In this document: piece by piece, positions 24,687 through 58,739 of the stretch
How the letters are laid out: the number at the start of each line of letters is the position of its first letter
How positions within the stretch are numbered: position 1 is the first letter of the stretch
Origin: Flavobacteriaceae bacterium
GTDB lineage: Bacteria > Bacteroidota > Bacteroidia > Flavobacteriales > Flavobacteriaceae
NCBI GenBank assembly: GCA_012959395.1
Contig: DUDG01000029.1
Coordinates: forward strand, 10,536-74,535
Direction: 5' to 3'
Length of the DNA stretch: 64,000 nucleotides
The notes under the pieces: generated by a model
What the model saw: only the letters and a program-made list of their open reading frames with translations
Database searches by the model: none
Told to the model about the DNA's origin: nothing
Program-made: the position numbers and the translations under genes

Positions 24687-24690
24687 TATT

Positions 24691-24864
24691 ATGAAAAAAG
24701 ATAATAAACGAGAATTTTCTATAAAGGAAAAATCAATTGCAATTGGTGTTGTTGGTGGTACTTTGGTAGGTGTTTTAACTGATAATATAGGACTTTGGCT
24801 TTCTCTAGGGATAGCTTTTGGAGTTGGAATTGGATTAGAAGCTGATAAACGAAAAAAAGAGTAA
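24691..24864 (+). CDS. small glycine-zipper membrane protein (57 aa), absent from the supplied ORF track
   Basis: Hand translation gives MKKDNKREFSIKEKSIAIGVVGGTLVGVLTDNIGLWLSLGIAFGVGIGLEADKRKKE, with stop TAA at 24862-24864. Basic termini flank a GxxxG-rich hydrophobic core. It starts 4 nt after the hppA stop. Confidence 0.55.
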   Translation: MKKDNKREFSIKEKSIAIGVVGGTLVGVLTDNIGLWLSLGIAFGVGIGLEADKRKKE

Positions 24865-29333: not shown

Positions 29334-30344
29334 TTGAACTTCAAATCAGTATTATTTTTTTTAATAGTTCCATTTTTTTGTTGGTCTCAGTCTAGATTTG
29401 AATCCATATTACTTGCTGTTGAAAGCGATTCAAAAAAACTATTTCAAGGCTATATGTCTCCTTTAATGAAAGGAGCAATTTATAGTTCAAATGGTGGTTG
29501 GTTTAACTCAGCTAAAGTCCATAAAAAGTTAGGTGTTGATTTAAGCTTAAGATTAAATGCTTCATTTGTGCCCTCAGCTGATCAAGTTTTCTCAATTTCT
29601 AATTTAGAATACATTACATCAGAAGCGAATGATTTGCCCACCATTATTGGATCTAGTAGACAAGAAGAATTGATAGTAACTATCCCCCCAGATGGAATTT
29701 TGCCAGAAATGAACACGACTATTAAATCTCCCAAAGGAATTAAAAGTAAATTACCCCTAGGGGCTGTTCCAGCTCCAGTTTTGCAATTAGGAATTGGAAT
29801 TCCTTTTGATACTGAAGTGATTTTAAGATATAGTCCTGAGTATCACAGAAAGGGAATAGACATGTCATTTAAGGGTTTAGGCATTAAACATAATCTATTG
29901 CAATATTTTGGGCCCATTGATAAATTCCCAATAAATATTTCTGCATTAGCTTCATTTTCTAAAATGAAAATAGATTATGATATTCAATCTTTTAGTTCAA
30001 TAAAAGGATCTGGTCAAGTAGCTCAATTTAGTCTTAATAATTATAATTTGTTATTGATAGCTTCTTTGGATGTATTGGTTGTAAATTTTTATGCTGGGTT
30101 TGGTTTTAGTGGTGGAGATTCTTCTTTTAAAATGTTAGGTCATTATGATTTAGAATATCAGACGGAATCAAATATTCCTATCACTAGGTCTTTAAATGAT
30201 CCAATAGATATGAATTTTAATGTTTCAGGCTACCAAACTACGATAGGAGCTAAGTTTAAATTTTTGATTTTTAGTGCTTATGCTGATTTTACTTTTCAGG
30301 ATTATAATACTCTTTCTGCAGGTATTTCAATAAATTTTAGATAA
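29334..30344 (+). CDS. putative outer-membrane / secreted beta-rich protein of unknown function (TTG start)
   Basis: The signal peptide (MNFKSVLFFLIVPFFCWSQS) exists only if the TTG at 29334 is used, since an in-frame TAA lies directly upstream. Ends in an aromatic-rich strand (GISINFR). Confidence 0.55.
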   Translation: MNFKSVLFFLIVPFFCWSQSRFESILLAVESDSKKLFQGYMSPLMKGAIYSSNGGWFNSAKVHKKLGVDLSLRLNASFVPSADQVFSISNLEYITSEANDLPTIIGSSRQEELIVTIPPDGILPEMNTTIKSPKGIKSKLPLGAVPAPVLQLGIGIPFDTEVILRYSPEYHRKGIDMSFKGLGIKHNLLQYFGPIDKFPINISALASFSKMKIDYDIQSFSSIKGSGQVAQFSLNNYNLLLIASLDVLVVNFYAGFGFSGGDSSFKMLGHYDLEYQTESNIPITRSLNDPIDMNFNVSGYQTTIGAKFKFLIFSAYADFTFQDYNTLSAGISINFR

Positions 30345-30394
30345 TTTCTTTTTTTTTTAAAAAAAAATATATAATTTAGCCACCTAATTTATTG

Positions 30395-30446
30395 TTAGAG
30401 GAACGATTTGACTGATTGCAACCTCTTTAAAAAAGTGCTAAAGCAG
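30395..30446 (+). promoter_or_regulatory. SAM-II-like riboswitch candidate upstream of metY-metX
   Basis: GAGGAACGAUUUGACUGAUUGCAACCUCUUUAAAAAAGUGCUAAAGC. P1 pairs GAGG (30398-30401) with CCUC (30422-30425). CGAUUU and UUGCA lie in the loop. The A-rich AAAAAG..GCUAAAGC 3' tail is characteristic of the SAM-II (metA) motif, as I recall the consensus. Confidence 0.5.
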
Positions 30447-30521
30447 ATGCTTCACACTAATTTAACTGTCAAATTACATCTAATTATAAATTTAATTTAT
30501 TAATTAATTAAATATATAAAA

Positions 30522-31814
30522 ATGAGTGAACAAAAATTATCAACTAAAGCTTTACATGCAGGACATGATACAAGCTTAAATCAAGGAACAAGAGCTGTTC
30601 CTATTTACCAATCAACCTCTTATGTTTTTAATGATTCTGAACATGCTGCAAATTTGTTTGCATTAGCTGAACCAGGATATATATACACGAGATTAAACAA
30701 TCCAACAAATGATGTTTTGGAACAAAGATTAGCAGCACTTGAAGGAGGGATTGCTTCTGTTGTTACAGCTTCAGGAACTGCTGCAATTTCAACAGCTTTA
30801 TTAGTGCTTTTAAGAGCTGGAGATCATATAGTAGCATCTAGCAGCTTATATGGAGGAACTTTTAATTTACTAAATGTTACCTTACCAAGATTAGGCATTA
30901 CTACTACTTTTGTAGACCCATCAGACCCTCAAAATTTTGCAAATGCTGTTCAAGAAAATACTAGAGTATTTTTCGCAGAATCTTTAGGAAATCCAAAATT
31001 GGACGTTTTAGATTTAAAAGAAATATCTAATCATGCTAAGGCATCAAAGGTTCCATTTATAGTAGACAATACTGTAGCCACACCAGCTTTATTAAACCCA
31101 ATTGAACATGGAGCTAATATTGTTATCCATTCTTTAACTAAATACATTAATGGTAACGGCACTTCTTTAGGAGGCGCTGTAATTGATGCTGGCACTTTTG
31201 ATTGGTCAAGTGGAAAATTTCCTGAATTTACTGAGCCTTCACCTGGTTATCATGGATTAATTTATCATGATGCTATAGGAGCTGCAGCTTTTATTGCTAA
31301 GGTTAGAATAGAAGGTCTTAGAGATTTAGGTGGTGCTTTAAGTCCATTTAATGCTTTTCAAATTATTCAAGGATTGGAGACTTTAGAGATTAGGATCACA
31401 AAACATAGTGAGAATGCCCTAGAGTTAGCTAAATGGCTAGAAAAAAGAGAAGAAGTAGAATGGGTAAATTACCCTGGATTGAATACAAGCAAGTATAAAT
31501 CTTTAGCTGAAAAATATCTTCCTAAAGGACAAAGTGGTCTTATTACTTTTGGAGTGAAAGGAGGTTATGAATCAGCTAAGACTATTGCTGATAAAACAGC
31601 GATTTTTTCTTTATTAGCTAATATTGGAGATACCAAATCTTTAATTATTCACCCTGCTAGTACAACACATCAACAATTAGGTCCTGATGAACAAGCTTCA
31701 ACAGGAGTTACCAGTGATTTAATTAGACTATCTGTTGGACTTGAAAATATAGAAGATTTGAAAAATGATTTAGAACTAGCTTTTTCAAAAATAGATTCAA
31801 AAGTTTTAGTATAA
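30522..31814 (+). CDS. metY: O-acetylhomoserine aminocarboxypropyltransferase (sulfhydrylase)
   Basis: Cys/Met-metabolism PLP family. HSLTKYINGNGTSLGG (PLP lysine). N-terminus LHAGHD..GTRAVPIYQSTSYVF. 430 aa. Confidence 0.9.
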   Translation: MSEQKLSTKALHAGHDTSLNQGTRAVPIYQSTSYVFNDSEHAANLFALAEPGYIYTRLNNPTNDVLEQRLAALEGGIASVVTASGTAAISTALLVLLRAGDHIVASSSLYGGTFNLLNVTLPRLGITTTFVDPSDPQNFANAVQENTRVFFAESLGNPKLDVLDLKEISNHAKASKVPFIVDNTVATPALLNPIEHGANIVIHSLTKYINGNGTSLGGAVIDAGTFDWSSGKFPEFTEPSPGYHGLIYHDAIGAAAFIAKVRIEGLRDLGGALSPFNAFQIIQGLETLEIRITKHSENALELAKWLEKREEVEWVNYPGLNTSKYKSLAEKYLPKGQSGLITFGVKGGYESAKTIADKTAIFSLLANIGDTKSLIIHPASTTHQQLGPDEQASTGVTSDLIRLSVGLENIEDLKNDLELAFSKIDSKVLV

Positions 31815-31823
31815 ATTAACAAA

Positions 31824-32825
31824 ATGACTAATTTAAATAAGCTCAATATTCTAAATTTTAATTCTTTTAATGGAACTATATTTGATATTGAGCTTACTTA
31901 CGAAATTTTTGGATTACCAATTGGAGATGCTCCTATAGTATTAGTTAATCATGCTTTAACAGGAAATTCAACTTTAGTTGGAGAAAATGGTTGGTGGAAT
32001 CCAATAATTGGTAAAGAAAAATTAATTGATACTGAAAAGTATTCAGTATTGGCTTTTAACTTTCCAGGTAACGGATATGACGGTGTATTAATTGAAAATT
32101 ACAAGGATTTAATTCTAAGAGATATTGCAAAAGTGTTTTTAATTGGTTTAGATAAATTAAATATAAAATCTTTGTTTGCAATAATTGGAGGTTCTATCGG
32201 AGGGGGACTTGTATGGGAAATGGCGGCATTAGCTCCTGATTTGGCAAAGAATCTTATTCCAGTCGCTTGTGATTGGAAGTCTTCAGATTGGCTTTTAGCT
32301 AATACTAGGTTACAACATCAAATATTAAATAATTCATCAAATCCTGTTCATGATGCTAGAATACATGCAATGTTGTGTTATAGATCTCCTAAGTCATTTG
32401 ATAAAAAGTTTGACCGTTCAATAAATGAAGGGTTAAATATTTTTAATATTGAGAGTTGGTTACTTCATCATGGAAAAAAACTTCAAAAAAGATTTCAATT
32501 ATCTTCATATAAACTAATGAATCATCTGCTTTCGACAATTGATATTACTAGTGGAGAGGAAAAGAAATTTTCAGAGATAGTCTCAAAAATAAAAGGAAAT
32601 TTATACATTGTTTCAGTTGATTCAGATCTATTTTTTACAGATTATCATAATAGAAATACCTTTTATAAGGTTTGTAAGGTTAAAGACAACGTTTTTTACT
32701 GTCCGATTAAATCTGTCCATGGACATGATGCCTTTTTAATTGAATTTGATCAATTGAAAGAACTTTTATCGGATATTTTTGTAGAAAAGAAACCTTGGTT
32801 ATTGAGATCTCTTCAAAAAGTTTAA
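31824..32825 (+). CDS. metX: homoserine O-acetyltransferase
   Basis: Alpha/beta-hydrolase fold, VLVNHALTGNS and GGSIGG nucleophile elbow. Directly follows metY. Confidence 0.8.
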   Translation: MTNLNKLNILNFNSFNGTIFDIELTYEIFGLPIGDAPIVLVNHALTGNSTLVGENGWWNPIIGKEKLIDTEKYSVLAFNFPGNGYDGVLIENYKDLILRDIAKVFLIGLDKLNIKSLFAIIGGSIGGGLVWEMAALAPDLAKNLIPVACDWKSSDWLLANTRLQHQILNNSSNPVHDARIHAMLCYRSPKSFDKKFDRSINEGLNIFNIESWLLHHGKKLQKRFQLSSYKLMNHLLSTIDITSGEEKKFSEIVSKIKGNLYIVSVDSDLFFTDYHNRNTFYKVCKVKDNVFYCPIKSVHGHDAFLIEFDQLKELLSDIFVEKKPWLLRSLQKV

Positions 32826-32842
32826 TTATTTTTTAATTGATT

Positions 32843-32873
32843 TTTGTTTTTTCAATAAGTAATACTACTTTTA
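32843..32873 (+). promoter_or_regulatory. candidate Bacteroidetes-type promoter for the phe leader (-33 TTTG, -7 TACTTTTA)
   Basis: TTTG at 32843-32846 and TACTTTTA at 32866-32873 (7 of 8 match to TAnnTTTG), separated by 19 nt and lying 19 nt upstream of the leader ATG. Confidence 0.35.
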
Positions 32874-32891
32874 CACTTTAAGTCAAAAATT

Positions 32892-32969
32892 ATGAACTTA
32901 TCTTATTTCTGTCAAAATTTTTATTTCTTCTTCTATTTTGAAGTAGAAAAAGGACTTTTGTATATATAA
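32892..32969 (+). CDS. Phe/Tyr-rich leader peptide (25 codons) of the aromatic amino acid operon
   Basis: Hand translation gives MNLSYFCQNFYFFFYFEVEKGLLYI*, with 6 Phe and 4 Tyr, including seven consecutive aromatic codons at 32919-32939. It lies between metX and pheA, just upstream of a strong terminator. Confidence 0.7.
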   Translation: MNLSYFCQNFYFFFYFEVEKGLLYI

Positions 32970-32991
32970 GATATTAGTAAAATATATAATT

Positions 32992-33024
32992 AAAGGTCCT
33001 GATTTTATCAGGACCTTTTTTTTT
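32992..33024 (+). terminator. intrinsic terminator (attenuator) 7 nt upstream of the pheA start
   Basis: AAAGGTCCTGA-ttttA-TCAGGACCTTT. The core stem pairs GGTCCTGA (32995-33002) with TCAGGACC (33008-33015) and is extendable by three A-T pairs. A run of nine T follows (33016-33024). Confidence 0.8.
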
Positions 33025-33031
33025 AATAAAA

Positions 33032-33853
33032 ATGAGTAAAGTAGCAATTCAAGGAATAAAAGGATCCTACCACGATCAGGTAGCTAAAGAATATTTTGAT
33101 AATTCTGTAGAAATTATTGAATTTTTATCTTTTGATGAAGTAGTTGATTCGGTTAATAATGGATTCTGTGAGTTAGGTGTTATAGCAATTGAAAATTCAA
33201 TTGCTGGTTCAATAATATCAAATTATGCATTAATTGACAATTTAAATTTGAATATTGTTGGCGAACATTATATGAATATTAATCATCAGTTGATGGCTTT
33301 ACCTGGATCTAAAATAGAGAATTTAGAAATAGTATCTTCTCATCCTATGGCCTTATTACAATGTAAAAAGTTTTTAAAAAATTATCCTAAAATAACACTA
33401 ATAGAGGATAAAGATACTGCTGAAGTTGCTTATAGAATAAATAGGGACAAGATTAAAAATATGGGAGCAATTGCCAGTGTTTATGCTTCAGAGCTTTATG
33501 ATTTGGAAATACTTTCAAAAAACATTCAGACTATAAAAAATAATGAGACTCGATTTGTTGTTGTTTCAAAAGAAACTTTAATAGAAAACACAAACAGTAA
33601 TAAAGTATCTTTTAAATTTTCATTAAGTCATGAAACAGGAAGTTTAGCATCAATTTTGAATGTTTTAAAAGATTATAATTTGAATTTAACAAAAATCCAA
33701 TCTCTTCCAATTATAGAAACACCTTGGAAGTATTCTTTTTTTATTGATACGACTTTTGATTTATTAGATAATTTAAATAAGTCACTAATAATTATACGTG
33801 AAAAATCGGAATCCTTAAAGGTGCTAGGTATTTATAAAAATCAAATCAAATGA
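33032..33853 (+). CDS. pheA: prephenate dehydratase (PDT + ACT domains, no chorismate mutase domain)
   Basis: VAIQGIKGSYHDQVA start, TRF motif (NETRFVV) and a C-terminal ACT domain (GSLASILNVLKDYNLNLTKIQSLP). 273 aa. Confidence 0.9.
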   Translation: MSKVAIQGIKGSYHDQVAKEYFDNSVEIIEFLSFDEVVDSVNNGFCELGVIAIENSIAGSIISNYALIDNLNLNIVGEHYMNINHQLMALPGSKIENLEIVSSHPMALLQCKKFLKNYPKITLIEDKDTAEVAYRINRDKIKNMGAIASVYASELYDLEILSKNIQTIKNNETRFVVVSKETLIENTNSNKVSFKFSLSHETGSLASILNVLKDYNLNLTKIQSLPIIETPWKYSFFIDTTFDLLDNLNKSLIIIREKSESLKVLGIYKNQIK

Positions 33854-35001
33854 TTAAACAGGCAAATAGGTTAAATACAGTTGAAGAATATTATTTTTCA
33901 AAAAAACTTAGAGAAGTCTCGGAATTAATTTTTTCAGGAGAATCGATTATTAATATGGGTATAGGTAGTCCAGACTTGTTTCCTTCAAAAAAGGTTATTG
34001 AAGCCTTGTCTTCGAGCTTAAGTGATGAATTTGCACACAAGTATCAAAGTTATCAAGGTATTTTTGAACTTCGTAAAGCAATTTCAGATTTTTATTTCAG
34101 ATTTTTTAAAGTAGATTGTGATCCAAATTATGAGGTTTTACCTCTAATGGGTTCTAAAGAAGGTATTATGCATATTTCTTTAGCTTTTTTAAACCCTGGT
34201 GATGAAGTGTTAATTCCAAATCCTGGATATCCTACATACTTATCCGTTACAAAACTTGTTGAAGCTATTCCTAAATTTTATAATCTTTCAAAAAAAAATA
34301 ATTGGTTTCCAGATTTATCTACTTTGGAAAAGCAAGACCTTTCTAAAGTTAAAATCATGTGGATAAATTATCCTCATATGCCAACAGGAGCCGCCGCTTC
34401 TCTAAAACAATTTGAAGAACTGATCTTGTTTGCAAAAAAAAATGATATTTTATTAATTAATGATAACCCATATAGCTTTATATTAAATGATGATTTTGTT
34501 AGTCTTTTATATGTTAATAATGCTAAGGAGGTTGCAATGGAATTAAATTCACTTAGTAAGTCATTTAATTTGTCAGGATGGAGAGTAGGTATGTTATTAG
34601 GTTCAAAGGATAACATATCTAAAGTATTAAAAATAAAAAGCAATATGGATTCAGGAATGTTTTATGGAATTCAAAAAGGGGCTATTCAAGCGCTTAGTTT
34701 GGAAGATTCATGGTTTAATTCATTAAATATTAAATATGAAAAAAGAAGAAAATTAATTTGGGAATTAGTTGCAAATTTAGGTTGTGATTTCGATAAAAAT
34801 TCTAAAGGATTATTTGTGTGGGCTAAACTTCCAGAAAGATTTAAAAATTCAGTAAAATTTGTTGACAGTATTTTGAAAGATAAAAAGATATTTATAGCTC
34901 CTGGAACAATTTTTGGTTCAGAAGGAGAGGGCTATATAAGATTTTCGTTGTGTATTGATGAAGAAAAGATTATTGAAGCAATAAAAAGATGCAAAAAATG
35001 A
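33850..35001 (+). CDS. class I/II PLP-dependent aminotransferase (probable aromatic/prephenate aminotransferase)
   Basis: NPGYPTY and SLSKSFNLSGWRVG (PLP lysine) motifs. ATGA overlap with pheA. Confidence 0.8.
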   Translation: MIKQANRLNTVEEYYFSKKLREVSELIFSGESIINMGIGSPDLFPSKKVIEALSSSLSDEFAHKYQSYQGIFELRKAISDFYFRFFKVDCDPNYEVLPLMGSKEGIMHISLAFLNPGDEVLIPNPGYPTYLSVTKLVEAIPKFYNLSKKNNWFPDLSTLEKQDLSKVKIMWINYPHMPTGAAASLKQFEELILFAKKNDILLINDNPYSFILNDDFVSLLYVNNAKEVAMELNSLSKSFNLSGWRVGMLLGSKDNISKVLKIKSNMDSGMFYGIQKGAIQALSLEDSWFNSLNIKYEKRRKLIWELVANLGCDFDKNSKGLFVWAKLPERFKNSVKFVDSILKDKKIFIAPGTIFGSEGEGYIRFSLCIDEEKIIEAIKRCKK

Positions 35002-35858
35002 ATATAGCAGTAATAGGATTAGGTTTAATGGGGGGCTCTTTTGCTTTAGATATCAAATCGGTGTATTCTAATTCTAAAATTTTTGGAATTGATAATTCAG
35101 ATTCTAATTTAAAAGAGGCTCTGGCTTTAGATTTAATAGATCAGATTATTACATATGATGATCTTATTAAAATGGATATTGTACTAGTTTCAATTCCCGT
35201 TAATTATTCACTTATTGTTATTCCTAAGGTTTTAGAAAAAATAAACGAAAATACATTAGTCTTTGATGTTGGTTCAACTAAAGAAGCCATATGTCAGATA
35301 CTGGAAAATCACCCTAAAAGAGCTAATTTCTTAGCAGCTCACCCTATGGCTGGAACTGAATTCTCTGGTCCAAAAGCTGCTCATAAAGGTCTGTATATTA
35401 GTAAGACCAATATATTGTGTGAATTTGAAAAAACAGATCATAAACTTAGAGAATTTGCTTTAGAAATTTTTGATAATCTAAATATGAAAATCATCTATAT
35501 GGACCCAAAGCCTCATGATGTTCATGTGGCATATGTATCCCATTTATCTCATATTAGTTCTTTTATGTTAGGAAAGACAGTAATAGAAAAAGAAAAAAAT
35601 GAAAAAAATATTTTTGACTTGGCAGGAAGTGGTTTTGAATCTACTGTTAGACTAGCCAAAAGTCTTCCTGAAACTTGGACACCTATTTTTTTACAGAATA
35701 AAAACAATTTGGTTTTAGCTATTGATGAATATATTTCTAATTTAAATGCATTAAAAAAAATAATTGAAAATAACGATAGTAATAAACTTTCATCAATATT
35801 AAATGATACAAATAGAATTAAAGAAATATTAAGTAATAAATTAGAAAATGGAAAATAA
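34989..35858 (+). CDS. tyrA: prephenate dehydrogenase
   Basis: Rossmann motif IAVIGLGLMGGSFA and the AAHPMAGTE catalytic region. Overlaps both neighbouring genes. Confidence 0.88.
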   Translation: MQKMNIAVIGLGLMGGSFALDIKSVYSNSKIFGIDNSDSNLKEALALDLIDQIITYDDLIKMDIVLVSIPVNYSLIVIPKVLEKINENTLVFDVGSTKEAICQILENHPKRANFLAAHPMAGTEFSGPKAAHKGLYISKTNILCEFEKTDHKLREFALEIFDNLNMKIIYMDPKPHDVHVAYVSHLSHISSFMLGKTVIEKEKNEKNIFDLAGSGFESTVRLAKSLPETWTPIFLQNKNNLVLAIDEYISNLNALKKIIENNDSNKLSSILNDTNRIKEILSNKLENGK

Positions 35859-36933
35859 GAAAGAAATGAGAAATTGGCTTGATGAGTTGAAATTAATTCA
35901 TCCTTTGGTAATTGCTGGACCGTGTAGTGCTGAAACTGAAGATCAAGTTTTGAAAATTGCGCACGATTTAAAAGATACTGACGTATCAGTTTATAGGGCT
36001 GGAATATGGAAACCAAGAACAAGACCAGGCATGTTTGAAGGAGTTGGAGCAATTGGCTTAAAATGGCTTGAAAAAGTAAAAAAGGAAACAGGACTTCTAA
36101 TAGCTATAGAAGTAGCTAATGCTAGTCATGTAAAGCTAGCGTTAGAATACGATATTGATATTCTTTGGATTGGCGCACGATCTACAGTCAGCCCTTTTAT
36201 TGTTCAGGAAATAGCTGATGCTTTAAATGGAACTGAAAAAATAGTATTAGTCAAAAACCCAGTAAATCCAGACTTATCTTTATGGCTTGGTGGAATTGAG
36301 AGGCTATACACTGCTAATATTAAAAAATTAGGAGTAATACATAGAGGATTTTCAACTTATGAAAAATCTAAATACAGAAACAATCCAGAATGGCAATTAC
36401 CTATCGAATTACAGAATAGGTTTCCAGATTTACCATTGATTTGTGATCCATCTCATATTGCAGGTAGAAGAGATATCTTACAGGATATTTCACAAACTGC
36501 CTTAGATTTAAATTTTGATGGATTAATGATAGAAACTCATATAGATCCTGATAATGCTTGGAGTGATGCTGCGCAACAAATCACACCCAAAACACTTGTT
36601 CAACTGATGGATGATTTAAAAATAAGAAAAGTTACTAATGAAGAAGCGGATTACAAAAATAAATTAAATACACTTAGAACACAAATTGACGTTATAGATC
36701 ACGGATTACTTGACAATCTAGGTAAAAGAATGAAGGTTGCTATTGAAATAGGAGGGCTTAAAAAGCTGAAAAATGTTGCAGTTTTACAAACTAAAAGATG
36801 GAATGAAATTCTGGGAAAAATGATTTTAGAAGGTGAACAAAAAGGATTGAGTGAAGAGTTCGTTTTAAGAATGTTTAAGGCTATTCATCAAGAGTCAATT
36901 AATCATCAAGAAAAGGTGATTAACAGTAAATAA
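35848..36933 (+). CDS. bifunctional 3-deoxy-7-phosphoheptulonate (DAHP) synthase / chorismate mutase
   Basis: N-terminal ~265 aa are type I-beta DAHPS/KDO8PS-like (IAGPCSAE, IWKPRTRPG, CDPSH). The C-terminal ~90 aa are an AroQ chorismate mutase (LRTQIDVIDHGLLDNLGKRMKVAIEIG). Confidence 0.88.
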   Translation: MENKKEMRNWLDELKLIHPLVIAGPCSAETEDQVLKIAHDLKDTDVSVYRAGIWKPRTRPGMFEGVGAIGLKWLEKVKKETGLLIAIEVANASHVKLALEYDIDILWIGARSTVSPFIVQEIADALNGTEKIVLVKNPVNPDLSLWLGGIERLYTANIKKLGVIHRGFSTYEKSKYRNNPEWQLPIELQNRFPDLPLICDPSHIAGRRDILQDISQTALDLNFDGLMIETHIDPDNAWSDAAQQITPKTLVQLMDDLKIRKVTNEEADYKNKLNTLRTQIDVIDHGLLDNLGKRMKVAIEIGGLKKLKNVAVLQTKRWNEILGKMILEGEQKGLSEEFVLRMFKAIHQESINHQEKVINSK

Positions 36934-36937
36934 ATAT

Positions 36938-37879
36938 ATGAAAGGAAGAATTTATAAATCAACTGGAAATTGGCATTCTGTTCTTTCAGAATCCAATCAG
37001 GTTTATAAATGTAATATAAAAGGAAAATTTAGATCATTAGGAATTAAAAGTACAAATCCCATTGCAGTTGGAGATTTTGTAAATTTTGAAATAACTAATA
37101 AAGAAGACTATACAGGGGTTATCTATAAAATTATAAACAGGAAAAATTATATAATTAGAAAATCTGTTAATCTTTCGAAGCAATCGCATATAATTGCTTC
37201 AAATATTGATTGTTGTTTTTTGATAGTTACTCCAAGTAATCCATTAACCTCTTCAATTTTTATTGATAGAGTTTTGGTTGCTACAAAATCTTTTGGAATA
37301 GAAACAATTGTTTTATTTAATAAAATTGATATCTATTCAAAAAATGATCTAAATTATGTAGAACAGTTAAAGAATATTTATATTAAAATAGGATATAAAA
37401 CATTAGAGATTTCTGTTTTAAAAGAAATTAACATAGGTTTACTTAAAGAAATGCTGTTAAATAAAACATCAATTTTTACTGGACATAGTGGAGTTGGGAA
37501 AACTAGTCTTGTTAATCTTTTAGATCCTGATCTAATACTTAAAACTGCTGAAATATCAAAATTTAGTGAGCAAGGTCAACATACTACAACTTTTGCTGAA
37601 ATGTTTGATTTAAAGTTTGGTGCTTCTATTATTGATAGTCCTGGCATTAAAGGTTTTGGTTTAATTGATATAGAAAAAAATGAGTTAGGAGATTATTTTC
37701 CAGAATTTATTTTATATAAATCAAATTGTAAATTTAACAACTGTCTTCATGAAAATGAACCATATTGTGGAGTTAAAAAAGCACTAGAAAAAGGTAATAT
37801 TTCAGAATCCAGATATAAAAGTTATTTAAGTTTATTGAAGGGAGAAGATAAAAACTATAGAACTGATTATTGGGAATAA
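36938..37879 (+). CDS. rsgA: ribosome small subunit-dependent GTPase A
   Basis: Circularly permuted GTPase (NKIDI ... GHSGVGKTSLVN) and a C-terminal zinc knuckle (CKFNNCLHENEPYC). Confidence 0.9.
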   Translation: MKGRIYKSTGNWHSVLSESNQVYKCNIKGKFRSLGIKSTNPIAVGDFVNFEITNKEDYTGVIYKIINRKNYIIRKSVNLSKQSHIIASNIDCCFLIVTPSNPLTSSIFIDRVLVATKSFGIETIVLFNKIDIYSKNDLNYVEQLKNIYIKIGYKTLEISVLKEINIGLLKEMLLNKTSIFTGHSGVGKTSLVNLLDPDLILKTAEISKFSEQGQHTTTFAEMFDLKFGASIIDSPGIKGFGLIDIEKNELGDYFPEFILYKSNCKFNNCLHENEPYCGVKKALEKGNISESRYKSYLSLLKGEDKNYRTDYWE

Positions 37880-38332
37880 ATGAGAGTAGTAATTCAAAGA
37901 GTAAAAAAGGCCAGCGTTGAAGTTGGTAATTCAATTGTTTCTTCTATTGAAAATGGACTAGTGGTTTTATTAGGAATTGAAGATGAAGATGATTCAAAAG
38001 ATATAGAATGGATATCTACCAAAATCTCTCAACTAAGAATTTTTGATGACCAAAATAAAATCATGAATAATTCTCTTATAGATATTAATGGAGATATAAT
38101 AATAATAAGTCAATTTACTTTACATGCTTCCACAAAAAAAGGGAATAGGCCATCATATATTAAAGCTGCTAAAAGTGAGGTTGCAAAAAAAATTTATGAT
38201 CAGTTTTTAATTTCTATTGAAAATAAAATTAAAAAGAAGCCATTTTCAGGATTTTTTGGAGCAGATATGTTAGTTAAAATTGAAAATGATGGACCTGTTA
38301 CTATATTTATTGATTCAAAAAATAAAGAGTAA
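37880..38332 (+). CDS. dtd: D-aminoacyl-tRNA deacylase
   Basis: MRVVIQRVKKASV...SQFTL...GNRPSY...NDGPVT motifs. 150 aa. Confidence 0.92.
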   Translation: MRVVIQRVKKASVEVGNSIVSSIENGLVVLLGIEDEDDSKDIEWISTKISQLRIFDDQNKIMNNSLIDINGDIIIISQFTLHASTKKGNRPSYIKAAKSEVAKKIYDQFLISIENKIKKKPFSGFFGADMLVKIENDGPVTIFIDSKNKE

Positions 38333-48627: not shown

Positions 48628-48779
48628 GTAAATTAAAATCTAATGGACAAATATAGGTAAATAGGAATTATAATTTTTTAATAAATTTTTATACTCTTAT
48701 CACTTTTTAACATATTTAATATTCAGATAATCAGCTTTTTATGTATAAATATTTATTAAAAATTAAAATTATTAACAAA

Positions 48780-48809
48780 GTGGTAAAAAGTGGTAAAAAG
48801 TGGTAAAAT
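48780..48809 (+). promoter_or_regulatory. three tandem 10-bp direct repeats GTGGTAAAA(A/T): candidate MraZ operator
   Basis: GTGGTAAAAA GTGGTAAAAA GTGGTAAAAT read directly. Located 36 nt upstream of the mraZ start and 5 nt upstream of a TATATTTG box. Confidence 0.65.
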
Positions 48810-48814
48810 TTCAA

Positions 48815-48822
48815 TATATTTG
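48815..48822 (+). promoter_or_regulatory. candidate -7 promoter element TATATTTG (TAnnTTTG) of the dcw operon
   Basis: Exact match to the Bacteroidetes sigma-A -7 consensus, 23 nt upstream of the mraZ GTG. Confidence 0.45.
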
Positions 48823-48844
48823 AGTTTAAACCTAAAAAGATCCA

Positions 48845-56483: not shown

Positions 56484-57658
56484 TGAAATCAATTTTTGAA
56501 AAAATACAAGGAGATAAAATAATATGGACAATAGTTTCATTATTAGCCTTGTTTTCATTTTTGCCAGTTTACAGTGCTAGCTCAAATTTCGGAAACGATC
56601 TTATTTTTTCCAATATGATTAAGCATATTGCTATTGTATTTATTGGTATGCTGATAATGTACGGTACACATTTGATTCCATATAGATATTTTAAAGGGTT
56701 GTCGATTATATGTTTACCCATTATCATTTTACTTTTATTATTTACAGCTTTACAAGGAAATGTTATAGAAGGGGCTAATGCTAGTAGATGGGTAAAACTG
56801 CCAGTTGTTGGATTATCTTTTCAGCCTTCATCAATGGCAATAGTAATCCTTATGGTTTATACATCTTTCTATTTGTCTAAAAATTATAATAAAAAAATAA
56901 GTTTTAATCAATCAATTTTGCCACTATGGACACCTATTTTATTAGTTCTTATTTTGATTCTTCCATCTAATTTTTCAACGGCAGCAATGATTTTTATGAT
57001 GATTTTAACTTTAATTTTTATAGGAAGATATCCTTTGAAATATTTGTTAGGAATTATTTTTTCTGGACTATTCTTATTATCAATATTTGTTTTATTAGCT
57101 AAAAGCTATCCTGATTTGATGCCTAATAGAATTGATACTTGGGTTAATAGAATAGATAATTTTATAGGAGAAGAAAGCATTGAATCAAATTATCAAATAA
57201 TTAGAGCGAAATCAGCTATTGCAACTGGCTCTATTTTTGGAGTTGGTGCTGGAAAAAGTGCAATGAAAAATTTATTACCACAAAGTACTTCTGATTTTAT
57301 TTATGCAATAATTACTGAAGAATATGGGACAATTGGAGCTATATCAATTTTATTATTATATACATTACTTCTTTTTAGGATAATTATTGTTTCCTATAAA
57401 TCTCAAACAGTTTTTGGGCAGTTATTAGCATTAGGAGTAGGGTTGCCAATTATTTTTCAAGCTTTTATTAATATGGGAGTTGCCGTTCAGCTTTTTCCTG
57501 TAACAGGACAGCCATTACCATTAATTAGTACTGGCGGAACTTCAATATGGATGACTTTTTTAGCTCTTGGAATTGTATTAAGTGTGAGTGTAAATAAAAT
57601 AGACGAAGAAACAGTTGATTATAATAACCCTTTAAATGTTTTAAGTGAAGCAGAATAA
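56483..57658 (+). CDS. ftsW: FtsW/RodA (SEDS) family peptidoglycan glycosyltransferase
   Basis: Ten-TM SEDS layout. SDFIYAIITEEYG and PLPLISTGGTS motifs. Confidence 0.9.
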   Translation: MKSIFEKIQGDKIIWTIVSLLALFSFLPVYSASSNFGNDLIFSNMIKHIAIVFIGMLIMYGTHLIPYRYFKGLSIICLPIIILLLLFTALQGNVIEGANASRWVKLPVVGLSFQPSSMAIVILMVYTSFYLSKNYNKKISFNQSILPLWTPILLVLILILPSNFSTAAMIFMMILTLIFIGRYPLKYLLGIIFSGLFLLSIFVLLAKSYPDLMPNRIDTWVNRIDNFIGEESIESNYQIIRAKSAIATGSIFGVGAGKSAMKNLLPQSTSDFIYAIITEEYGTIGAISILLLYTLLLFRIIIVSYKSQTVFGQLLALGVGLPIIFQAFINMGVAVQLFPVTGQPLPLISTGGTSIWMTFLALGIVLSVSVNKIDEETVDYNNPLNVLSEAE

Positions 57659-58739
57659 GTTTTTAATATCTGGTGGTGGTACTGGTGGACATATTTTTCC
57701 TGCAATTTCTATTGCTGATGAGTTATGTAATAAATTTCCTTCATCAGAAATTTTATTTGTTGGATCTAGTCATAGAATGGAAATGCAAAAAATCCCTGAA
57801 AATGGGTATAAAATAATAGGACTTTGGATTAGTGGAATAAAAAGAAAATTACATTTATCAAATCTTTTAATACCAATTAAAATTCTATTTAGCTTAATTA
57901 AATCATACTTGATTATTAATAAATTCAAACCTGATTTTGTAATTGGAACTGGAGGATTTGCAAGTGGACCTTTATTATTTGTAGCTTCAAAATTAAATAT
58001 TCCTACTCTCATTCAAGAGCAAAATTCATACGCTGGTTTAACTAATAAGATATTATCGAAATCAGTTGACACTATATGTGTTGCTTATTCAAATATGGAT
58101 CAATACTTTCCAAAAAATAAAATTGTTTTTACAGGAAATCCAGTTAGAAAAGAAATTAATAGCCATTCAAATTTTAAAAATGAATCTTTAAATTTTTTTA
58201 AAATGAATAGTAATAATAAAGTTTTATTAGTTCTTGGCGGAAGTTTAGGAGCTCAAAAAATTAATCAGTTTATTTCAGAAAAAATTGATCTATTTAAGAA
58301 ATTAAAAATTCAAATTATTTGGCAATGTGGGAAAATATATTACAATCGATATAAAATTTATAATTCTGATTTCACTTGTGTTTTACCATTTATTAAAGAT
58401 ATGAACTTAGCATATTGTGCAGCTGATATTATTGTTTCAAGGGCTGGTGCTAGTGTAATTTCTGAATTATGTATTGTTGGTAAACCGGTAATTTTCATTC
58501 CATCCCCTAAATTGGCTGAAGATCACCAAACTAAAAATGCTTTAAATATTGTAAAAAATAATGCAGCAGAAATGATAAAAGAAAAGAATTTAAACAAAGA
58601 ATTTTTTAGCGTTTTAAAAAATTTAATTACAAATGATGAACATGCTATTAAATTATCTAATTCCATAAAATTATTAGAAAAACCTAATGCAACAAAAGAT
58701 ATAGTTAATCATATTGATAAATTATTAAGTAATGTTTAA
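57645..58739 (+). CDS. murG: undecaprenyldiphospho-muramoylpentapeptide beta-N-acetylglucosaminyltransferase (GTG start)
   Basis: ISGGGTGGHIFPA motif and a GT28 C-terminal domain (GGSLGA, SRAGAS). Confidence 0.9.
   Translation: MKQNKFLISGGGTGGHIFPAISIADELCNKFPSSEILFVGSSHRMEMQKIPENGYKIIGLWISGIKRKLHLSNLLIPIKILFSLIKSYLIINKFKPDFVIGTGGFASGPLLFVASKLNIPTLIQEQNSYAGLTNKILSKSVDTICVAYSNMDQYFPKNKIVFTGNPVRKEINSHSNFKNESLNFFKMNSNNKVLLVLGGSLGAQKINQFISEKIDLFKKLKIQIIWQCGKIYYNRYKIYNSDFTCVLPFIKDMNLAYCAADIIVSRAGASVISELCIVGKPVIFIPSPKLAEDHQTKNALNIVKNNAAEMIKEKNLNKEFFSVLKNLITNDEHAIKLSNSIKLLEKPNATKDIVNHIDKLLSNV

Follow-up and report, generated by a model that had tools for sequence, protein, structure and literature searches.

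A candidate ribosome-mediated Phe/Tyr attenuator of the pheA operon in an uncultured marine flavobacterium, and its conservation among Flavobacteriaceae

The pheL leader of Escherichia coli carries Phe codons only and controls a single bifunctional pheA gene, with tyrA and aroF placed under TyrR. Multivalent attenuators of the same bacterium combine several kinds of regulatory codons: Ile, Leu and Val in the ilvGMEDA leader, Thr and Ile in the thr leader. A survey of such attenuators published by Vitreschak and colleagues in FEMS Microbiol Lett in 2004 is said to mention Bacteroidetes/Chlorobi. The closest described system is the 5' element of pheA in Flavobacterium psychrophilum, THC0290_N_0195 (Guérin et al. 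2021, ISME Commun 1:33, PMC9723704; Table S7, SI D9), and that report already calls it a leader-peptide attenuation element, describes it as conserved in other Flavobacteriaceae genera and notes its absence from Rfam. The authors give an experimentally mapped SigA start site and a 5' segment of 170 nucleotides (nt), whose level reaches 11.5-12.4 (log2) in some conditions while that of pheA is 5.9-7.9; in other conditions pheA reaches 11-11.3. The ratio of the 5' segment to pheA thus shifts with condition, and expression of the operon is maximal in minimal nutrient media. They also map Bacteroid-trp, the tryptophan leader RNA of Bacteroidetes, upstream of trpE in F. psychrophilum. Here we analyse a 64-kb stretch of DNA (the window, about 28% GC; all coordinates are window positions) in which the spacer between metX and pheA holds a member of this published leader family, from an uncultured low-GC marine flavobacterium; the family is without an Rfam entry. 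Given the demonstrated sequence elements, their thermodynamic plausibility, conservation and co-variation, the element is very probably a ribosome-mediated transcription attenuator of the trp/pheL type, which would sense charged tRNA-Phe and tRNA-Tyr and control the pheA operon.

The spacer runs for 206 nt from the metX stop (32825) to the pheA ATG (33032). In a crude tiling of open reading frames (ORFs) only one gap of the window exceeds it, and no gap between genes of like orientation does. An earlier note on this DNA had rightly counted it among the longest; the other long gaps lie between divergent genes (48628-48844, 217 nt) and between convergent genes (24687-24864, 178 nt). Ten of the 25 residues encoded by the leader ORF (Table 1) are aromatic, six Phe and four Tyr, and seven of them form the uninterrupted run FYFFFYF. 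At about 28% GC, Phe and Tyr codons come cheaply by chance. Across all six reading frames of the window, nevertheless, no other run reaches seven F/Y/W codons, against 0.2 runs of at least this length expected per window in second-order Markov simulations, and by our own arithmetic the chance of such a run falling within the 206 nt before pheA is about 3e-4. The rare Phe codon TTC makes up four of the six Phe codons in the leader, compared with 11% of Phe codons in the genes of the window. The TTC codons of the leader pair with GAAG in one of the helices described below (1:2), which indicates that the ORF is also under selection for its RNA fold. Ahead of the start codon, A occupies positions -3, -6 and -12, and an A-rich context of this kind provides positive initiation determinants in Flavobacterium johnsoniae (PMC6847099). 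Another aromatic codon run of the window, WWWYWW at 57671-57688 (+), was considered as a Trp leader and rejected: it arises when a GGTGGTGGTACTGGTGG stretch early in a 364-aa ORF (57645-58739) is read out of frame.

The leader RNA can form three overlapping helices from four segments. The terminator (3:4) pairs 32992-33003 with 33007-33018 in a 12-bp stem with a 3-nt loop (-16.4 kcal/mol), and its T9 tract ends 7 nt before the pheA ATG. The antiterminator (2:3) folds in RNAfold as 17 bp, 32951-32960 with 32991-33000 and 32961-32967 with 32982-32988, at -13.2 kcal/mol; within it AGGACUUUU (32951-32959) pairs with AAAGGUCCU (32992-33000) through eight Watson-Crick pairs and one G-U. Segment 3 is shared by both helices, and the antiterminator and the terminator are therefore mutually exclusive. 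The third helix (1:2) is an interrupted stem of 18 bp, 32913-32933 with 32940-32960, at -11.3 kcal/mol by RNAfold. As the 5' arm of the antiterminator, segment 2 starts 12 nt after the aromatic run and lies 0-16 nt 5' of the leader stop codon, which stands at the top of this arm. The whole leader folds at -36.2 kcal/mol (z = -5.2), a value matched by none of 200 dinucleotide shuffles, and its minimum-energy fold consists of the 1:2 helix plus the 3:4 helix. The leader ORF, its aromatic run and the terminator with its T9 tract are all present as the earlier note had described them. Its nine-pair antiterminator is likewise present and does exclude the terminator, with the correction that the helix is about twice as long. 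Its description of a compact two-hairpin form does not hold: the conserved 1:2 helix makes this the complete four-segment arrangement of trp-type attenuators, 1:2 / 2:3 / 3:4.

Attenuators of the trp/pheL class combine a leader ORF, an intrinsic terminator, an exclusive antiterminator and a geometry within the reach of the ribosome, and all four are found here, the reach being judged from the generally known size of the ribosome footprint. In the mechanism they suggest, transcription would begin at a Bacteroidetes -33/-7 promoter and the RNA would form the three helices. With Phe and Tyr plentiful, the ribosome would reach the stop codon (32967-32969); from there, at the upper end of the antiterminator 5' arm, it would cover segment 2, as the earlier note had argued, and the arm is always so placed across the loci compared below. 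If the leader were left untranslated, the 1:2 helix would sequester segment 2 instead. Occupied in either way, segment 2 would leave segment 3 to pair with segment 4, and transcription would terminate 7 nt before pheA with an RNA of about 145 nt. When Phe-tRNA or Tyr-tRNA is scarce, a ribosome stalled on FYFFFYF (codons 10-16) would melt 1:2 and expose segment 2; the 2:3 helix would then form before segment 4 is synthesised, and the polymerase would read into the operon. In some lineages the charging of tRNA-Trp would add to the sensing.

The leader was compared with 80 Flavobacteriaceae loci, the best among at least 591 pheA loci found by PheA homology, giving 81 loci with the window; the leaders of five (L025, L028, L035, L036 and L054) were assigned by inspection. 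The nearest relatives are uncultured marine flavobacteria with PheA identities of 70-73%, and cultured genera stand at about 55-60%. An ATG-initiated ORF with an in-frame aromatic run lies just 5' of pheA in 81 of 81 loci, and a terminator lies just upstream of pheA in all 80 related loci. The leaders contain on average 5.3 Phe, 3.1 Tyr and 0.3 Trp codons: all 81 have at least two Tyr, 75 have at least four Phe, and 26 have Trp. Conservation is confined to the aromatic core, typically F/Y-Y-F-F-F, while N-termini differ between clades and the length of the peptide varies from 17 to 28 residues. Among close relatives the stop codon falls just before or just after segment 2 with the RNA pairing maintained; between L013 and L015, single-base changes shift it by 7-8 codons. 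A variable peptide tail combined with preserved RNA pairing argues for a regulatory ORF. That the ORF might instead encode a functional hydrophobic micropeptide, placed before pheA incidentally, draws on its conservation and on reports that some attenuator leader peptides act in trans (peTrpL of Sinorhizobium). The clade-specific N-termini, the variable length and the displaced stop codons are not what such a peptide would lead one to expect, and we consider this explanation extremely improbable.

Gene order separates the attenuator from a simpler explanation, in which the hairpin and T9 tract simply terminate metY-metX and the wealth of Phe and Tyr codons in the ORF is due to chance in an AT-rich (28% GC) spacer. 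The scan of 32826-32991 finds no terminator-like site after metX, so that transcripts of metY-metX would meet their first terminator in the hairpin starting at 32992; moreover, F/Y codons are AT-rich, and aromatic runs of five to six codons do occur by chance in the window. Yet the leader and terminator travel with pheA. The order pheA-aminotransferase-tyrA-3-deoxy-D-arabino-heptulosonate 7-phosphate (DAHP) synthase/chorismate mutase is the same in every one of the 80 related loci, whereas metY-metX stands upstream of the leader in only four of the 80 (L002, L003, L005 and L033). Of 79 loci, 33 have an opposite-strand ORF as their closest upstream neighbour; in F. psychrophilum the divergent gene gldA takes that place. 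The rarity of metY-metX upstream and the frequent divergent neighbour indicate that the hairpin is not simply a metX terminator, and an aromatic run that reaches seven codons only once in the window and is in frame at every locus is hardly a chance product. The comparative data effectively refute this explanation, to which we assign next to no probability, although the stopping of metX read-through may occur in this clade as a side effect of the attenuator.

The helices recur along with the leader. Among 48 non-redundant leader sequences used for the structural tests, the 2:3 and 3:4 helices are found in all 48, and the 1:2 helix, which pairs the antiterminator 5' arm back to the aromatic codons, in 46. 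On a plain MAFFT alignment of the 48 leaders, 89.5% of terminator cells are paired, against 23-53% when the arms are slid, and six of the 11 terminator pairs show compensatory changes. The best duplex between segments 2 and 3 lies roughly 7-12 nt past the aromatic run in nearly all 48 (the run of L025 was misassigned by the script), with a mean z of -3.6 against dinucleotide shuffles; in 44 of the 48, only 0-4 of 200 shuffles are as good. Segment 2 either overlaps the leader stop codon or sits no more than about 16 nt 5' of it. An alignment-free comparison shows that cognate 2:3 duplexes average -12.2 kcal/mol, against -6.8 for non-cognate ones of a different core type (Wilcoxon p = 2e-14), and that all seven terminator core types (GTCCT, GTCTC, GTCCC, ATCCT, ATCCC, ACCCT and GCCTC) pair best with their cognate partner. 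We also built a covariance model of the antiterminator state from family members, R1, whose seed includes the window sequence. In 79 of 81 sources R1 gives a single match per locus, each time preceding pheA, and the rest of the 598 kb is free of matches. Of the loci matched by R1, 57 lie outside the seed; its match to the window, itself part of the seed, is at 32934-33022 (69.7 bits, E = 1e-10). On the R1 alignment 88% of antiterminator cells are paired, against 34-48% when slid, and changes on both sides occur in eight of nine pairs, in 121 cells compared with 42 ± 5 in shuffles. The R1 alignment is fitted to the structure, and these counts should therefore be read together with the alignment-free comparison, which is free of that bias. 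The earlier note had proposed to look for conservation of the aromatic run and for compensatory changes in both helices; the run is kept in 81 of 81 loci, the synteny in 80 of 80, and both helices carry compensatory changes, which strongly supports its reading as a Phe/Tyr attenuator.

Several observations nevertheless count against it. On the plain MAFFT alignment the antiterminator is ambiguous, with 63% of cells paired both at slide 0 and at slide +1; these counts are blurred because in this low-complexity region MAFFT shifts about 20 sequences (the GTCTC type and a few more) by one column. The clean co-variation counts for this helix come from the structure-fitted alignment, and since the sequences are phylogenetically related, the seven pair types perhaps represent six independent events rather than 48. 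The terminator is stabler at equilibrium than the antiterminator (-16.4 against -13.2 kcal/mol), as appears to be the case in other attenuators, and read-through would therefore depend on kinetic, co-transcriptional folding. The promoter is a consensus match only, with a -7 box that ends in A and not G. Finally, for this uncultured flavobacterium we infer the mechanism from sequence, including promoter use, leader translation, stalling, kinetic competition and the response to amino-acid supply.

The putative promoter consists of a -33 TTG at 32844-32846, a 19-nt spacer and the -7 box TACTTTTA at 32866-32873. Start sites in F. johnsoniae lie 4-5 nt past the -7 box (PMC6847099), and on this basis transcription is predicted to start at about 32878-32879, some 13 nt before the leader ATG. 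In 71 of 81 loci the 90 nt preceding the leader ATG contain the motif TTG-N17-21-TAnnTT[TCA][GA]. A scan for sigma-70 promoters returned fewer matches than shuffled sequences; such a scan is uninformative for Bacteroidetes and was therefore replaced by the search for the -33/-7 motif.

A further explanation accepts the switch between antiterminator and terminator but has it set by a ligand, a T-box-like contact with tRNA or an RNA-binding protein, with the U/C-rich tract serving as an RNA arm only. Any factor that binds segment 1 or 2 could in principle toggle the helices, and leader translation in this lineage is something we infer. A permissive Rfam search (E up to 10) of 32000-34000 gives no leader, T-box, riboswitch, Phe_leader or Bacteroid-trp match, and its only matches are weak terminator look-alikes far below the gathering score (Yfr10, sau-19, ATPC and PyrR). 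Phe_leader and Bacteroid-trp also remain unmatched at the gathering threshold anywhere in the window, and no family of Rfam 15 corresponds to this leader element. In all 81 loci the tract is in frame with an ATG, is made of Phe/Tyr(/Trp) codons and is followed by a stop within ribosome reach of segment 2, constraints that a purely structural arm would not need. The initiation determinants A-3, A-6 and A-12 in the start context argue in the same direction, and the loop between segments 2 and 3 varies in sequence and length across loci, unlike a ligand pocket. A switch independent of translation is accordingly very unlikely, and attenuation through translation of the leader remains the preferred reading.

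The 3:4 hairpin ends 13 nt before the pheA ATG, and besides terminating transcription it might lower the initiation of pheA translation, an addition to attenuation rather than an alternative to it. Ribosomes of Bacteroidia work without Shine-Dalgarno pairing and react sensitively to RNA folding around the start codon, and initiation in F. johnsoniae is tuned by the secondary structure of the initiation region (PMC6847099). From the end of the T tract to the pheA ATG the distance is 7 nt here and 3-29 nt in most loci. In about a fifth of loci, however, this distance is 48-108 nt, and in L028 it is about 450 nt, so that tight spacing is not universal; the hairpin also lies largely beyond the usual -15 to +15 footprint. 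We regard this additional layer as unlikely. Loci with the extra 48-108 nt include L011, L018, L029 and L049. The long spacing of L028 (Gelidibacter) holds, at about 2590-2990, three inserted copies of a ~100-nt repeat with the sequence TTATGAGTTCGAAGAACGAAATAAAATGAACTAGTTGAACTAATCCCGCNGAAAGGCGGGAT, downstream of the attenuator terminator. At its end the repeat has a GC-rich hairpin, and it looks like a small mobile or repetitive element.

A broader proposal, which we hold as tentative and rather doubtful, treats the leader as a multivalent aromatic sensor with roles beyond pheA attenuation. Tyr is interleaved with Phe in all 81 lineages and Trp is present in about a third of them, and on this ground one leader would integrate two to three aromatic pools. 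If so, the integrated pools would set the flux along both terminal branches as well as through DAHP synthase/chorismate mutase. The terminator of the marine clade, as the first stop after a metY-metX operon controlled by a SAM-II riboswitch, would also gate read-through from the methionine operon. Lying 13 nt short of a start codon that works without Shine-Dalgarno pairing, the hairpin may add the translational layer.

The genes surrounding the leader are listed in Table 1. NCBIfam confirms all four downstream gene identities given by the earlier note. The regulated operon spans 33032-36933 (+) with overlapping reading frames, and a search for terminator-like sites inside it found none. It is followed on the same strand by rsgA and dtd (D-aminoacyl-tRNA deacylase) at 36938-38332, with gaps of 4 and 0 nt; no terminator-like site lies between the DAHP synthase/chorismate mutase gene and this pair, which may be co-transcribed with the aromatic operon. 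On the other side of the leader, a SAM-II riboswitch (Rfam RF01726, long-loop type) at 30392-30451 (+) scores 73.9 bits against a gathering score of 44. It sits in the 177-nt gap 5' of metY (30522), and the neighbouring metY-metX operon therefore has an RNA switch of its own; in the absence of a terminator after metX, read-through from these methionine genes would enter the aromatic leader. Directly 5' of the riboswitch is a 336-aa ORF (29334-30344, +) with no NCBIfam match at E up to 0.001.

Table 1. Features of the leader region and flanking genes (window positions)
Feature	Position	Strand	Remarks
O-acetylhomoserine sulfhydrylase (metY)	30522-31814		upstream of spacer; NCBIfam
MetX	31824-32825		upstream of spacer; NCBIfam
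Putative Bacteroidetes-type promoter	32844-32873	+	consensus match
Leader ORF, MNLSYFCQNFYFFFYFEVEKGLLYI	32892-32969	+	ATG start, 25 codons; equivalents in 81/81 loci
Segment 1	32913-32933	+	5' arm of 1:2 (anti-antiterminator / possible pause) helix; overlaps leader codons 8-14
Regulatory run FYFFFYF (TTT TAT TTC TTC TTC TAT TTT)	32919-32939	+	predicted ribosome stall site
Segment 2	32940-32967	+	3' arm of 1:2 (32940-32960) and 5' arm of antiterminator (32951-32967)
Segment 3	32982-33003	+	antiterminator 3' arm (32982-32988, 32991-33000) and terminator 5' arm (32992-33003)
Segment 4	33007-33024	+	terminator 3' arm (33007-33018) and T9 tract (33016-33024)
pheA, prephenate dehydratase	33032-33853	+	NCBIfam
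Aminotransferase	33850-35001	+	NCBIfam
tyrA, prephenate dehydrogenase	34989-35858	+	NCBIfam
DAHP synthase/chorismate mutase	35848-36933	+	NCBIfam

In Flavobacteriaceae the leader is a clear-cut and very highly conserved case of what is very probably ribosome-mediated attenuation, in a phylum that initiates translation without Shine-Dalgarno direction and uses unusual promoters. Abundant uncultured marine flavobacteria would, as far as the sequences tell, control the synthesis of Phe and Tyr together with the committed DAHP synthase step through one mixed leader. The comparison of 81 loci and the covariance model would suffice to seed an Rfam family and to improve genome annotation. The novelty claimed by the earlier note was overstated, since the F. 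psychrophilum ortholog had already been published as a leader-peptide attenuator and its conservation across genera noted. The logic is that of the textbook and the understanding of the mechanism is unchanged; the value of the locus lies in its annotation and in unusually clean comparative support.

Among known systems, the ilvGMEDA and thr leaders of E. coli resemble this one in that a single leader senses several amino acids, which are the end products of the operon; the amino acids and operons are different, and there is no homology. The tryptophan leader RNA of Bacteroidetes (Rfam Bacteroid-trp, Weinberg et al. 2010) belongs to the same phylum and the same mechanism class, but it carries Trp codons, precedes a different operon, differs in sequence and is unmatched in this region of the window. 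The E. coli pheL-pheA leader (Rfam Phe_leader; Gurvich et al. 2011, PMC3082878) shares a short ORF with tandem regulatory codons, four-segment pairing, an intrinsic terminator just before pheA and a decision between termination and read-through made by the position of the ribosome. No similarity to pheL in sequence or by covariance model accompanies these shared features, and the leader described here differs from it in mixing Phe and Tyr codons, in controlling both branches together with DAHP synthase/chorismate mutase, and in an initiation independent of Shine-Dalgarno pairing. The closest likeness is to THC0290_N_0195 of F. psychrophilum. That element too is placed before pheA-aspC and downstream aromatic genes, with a leader of the same kind (MNTNNTFYSNNSFYFYWNIGRDCYMVI), a segment 2/3 pairing of AGGGATTGT with ACAATCCC, and a terminator followed by T9; Guérin et al. 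(PMC9723704) appear to analyse neither the three-helix architecture nor co-variation. THC0290_N_0195 is about 75% identical to the elements of two relatives in our comparison (L070 and L067) and about 66% identical to that of the window. In contrast to it, the window element comes from another genus and habitat, its host being an uncultured marine flavobacterium of low GC content with a PheA about 60% identical to those of cultured genera. Its aromatic run (FYFFFYF) continues for longer without a break, its leader lacks Trp codons, its terminator core is GTCCT in place of ATCCC, and metY-metX lies upstream in the same orientation.

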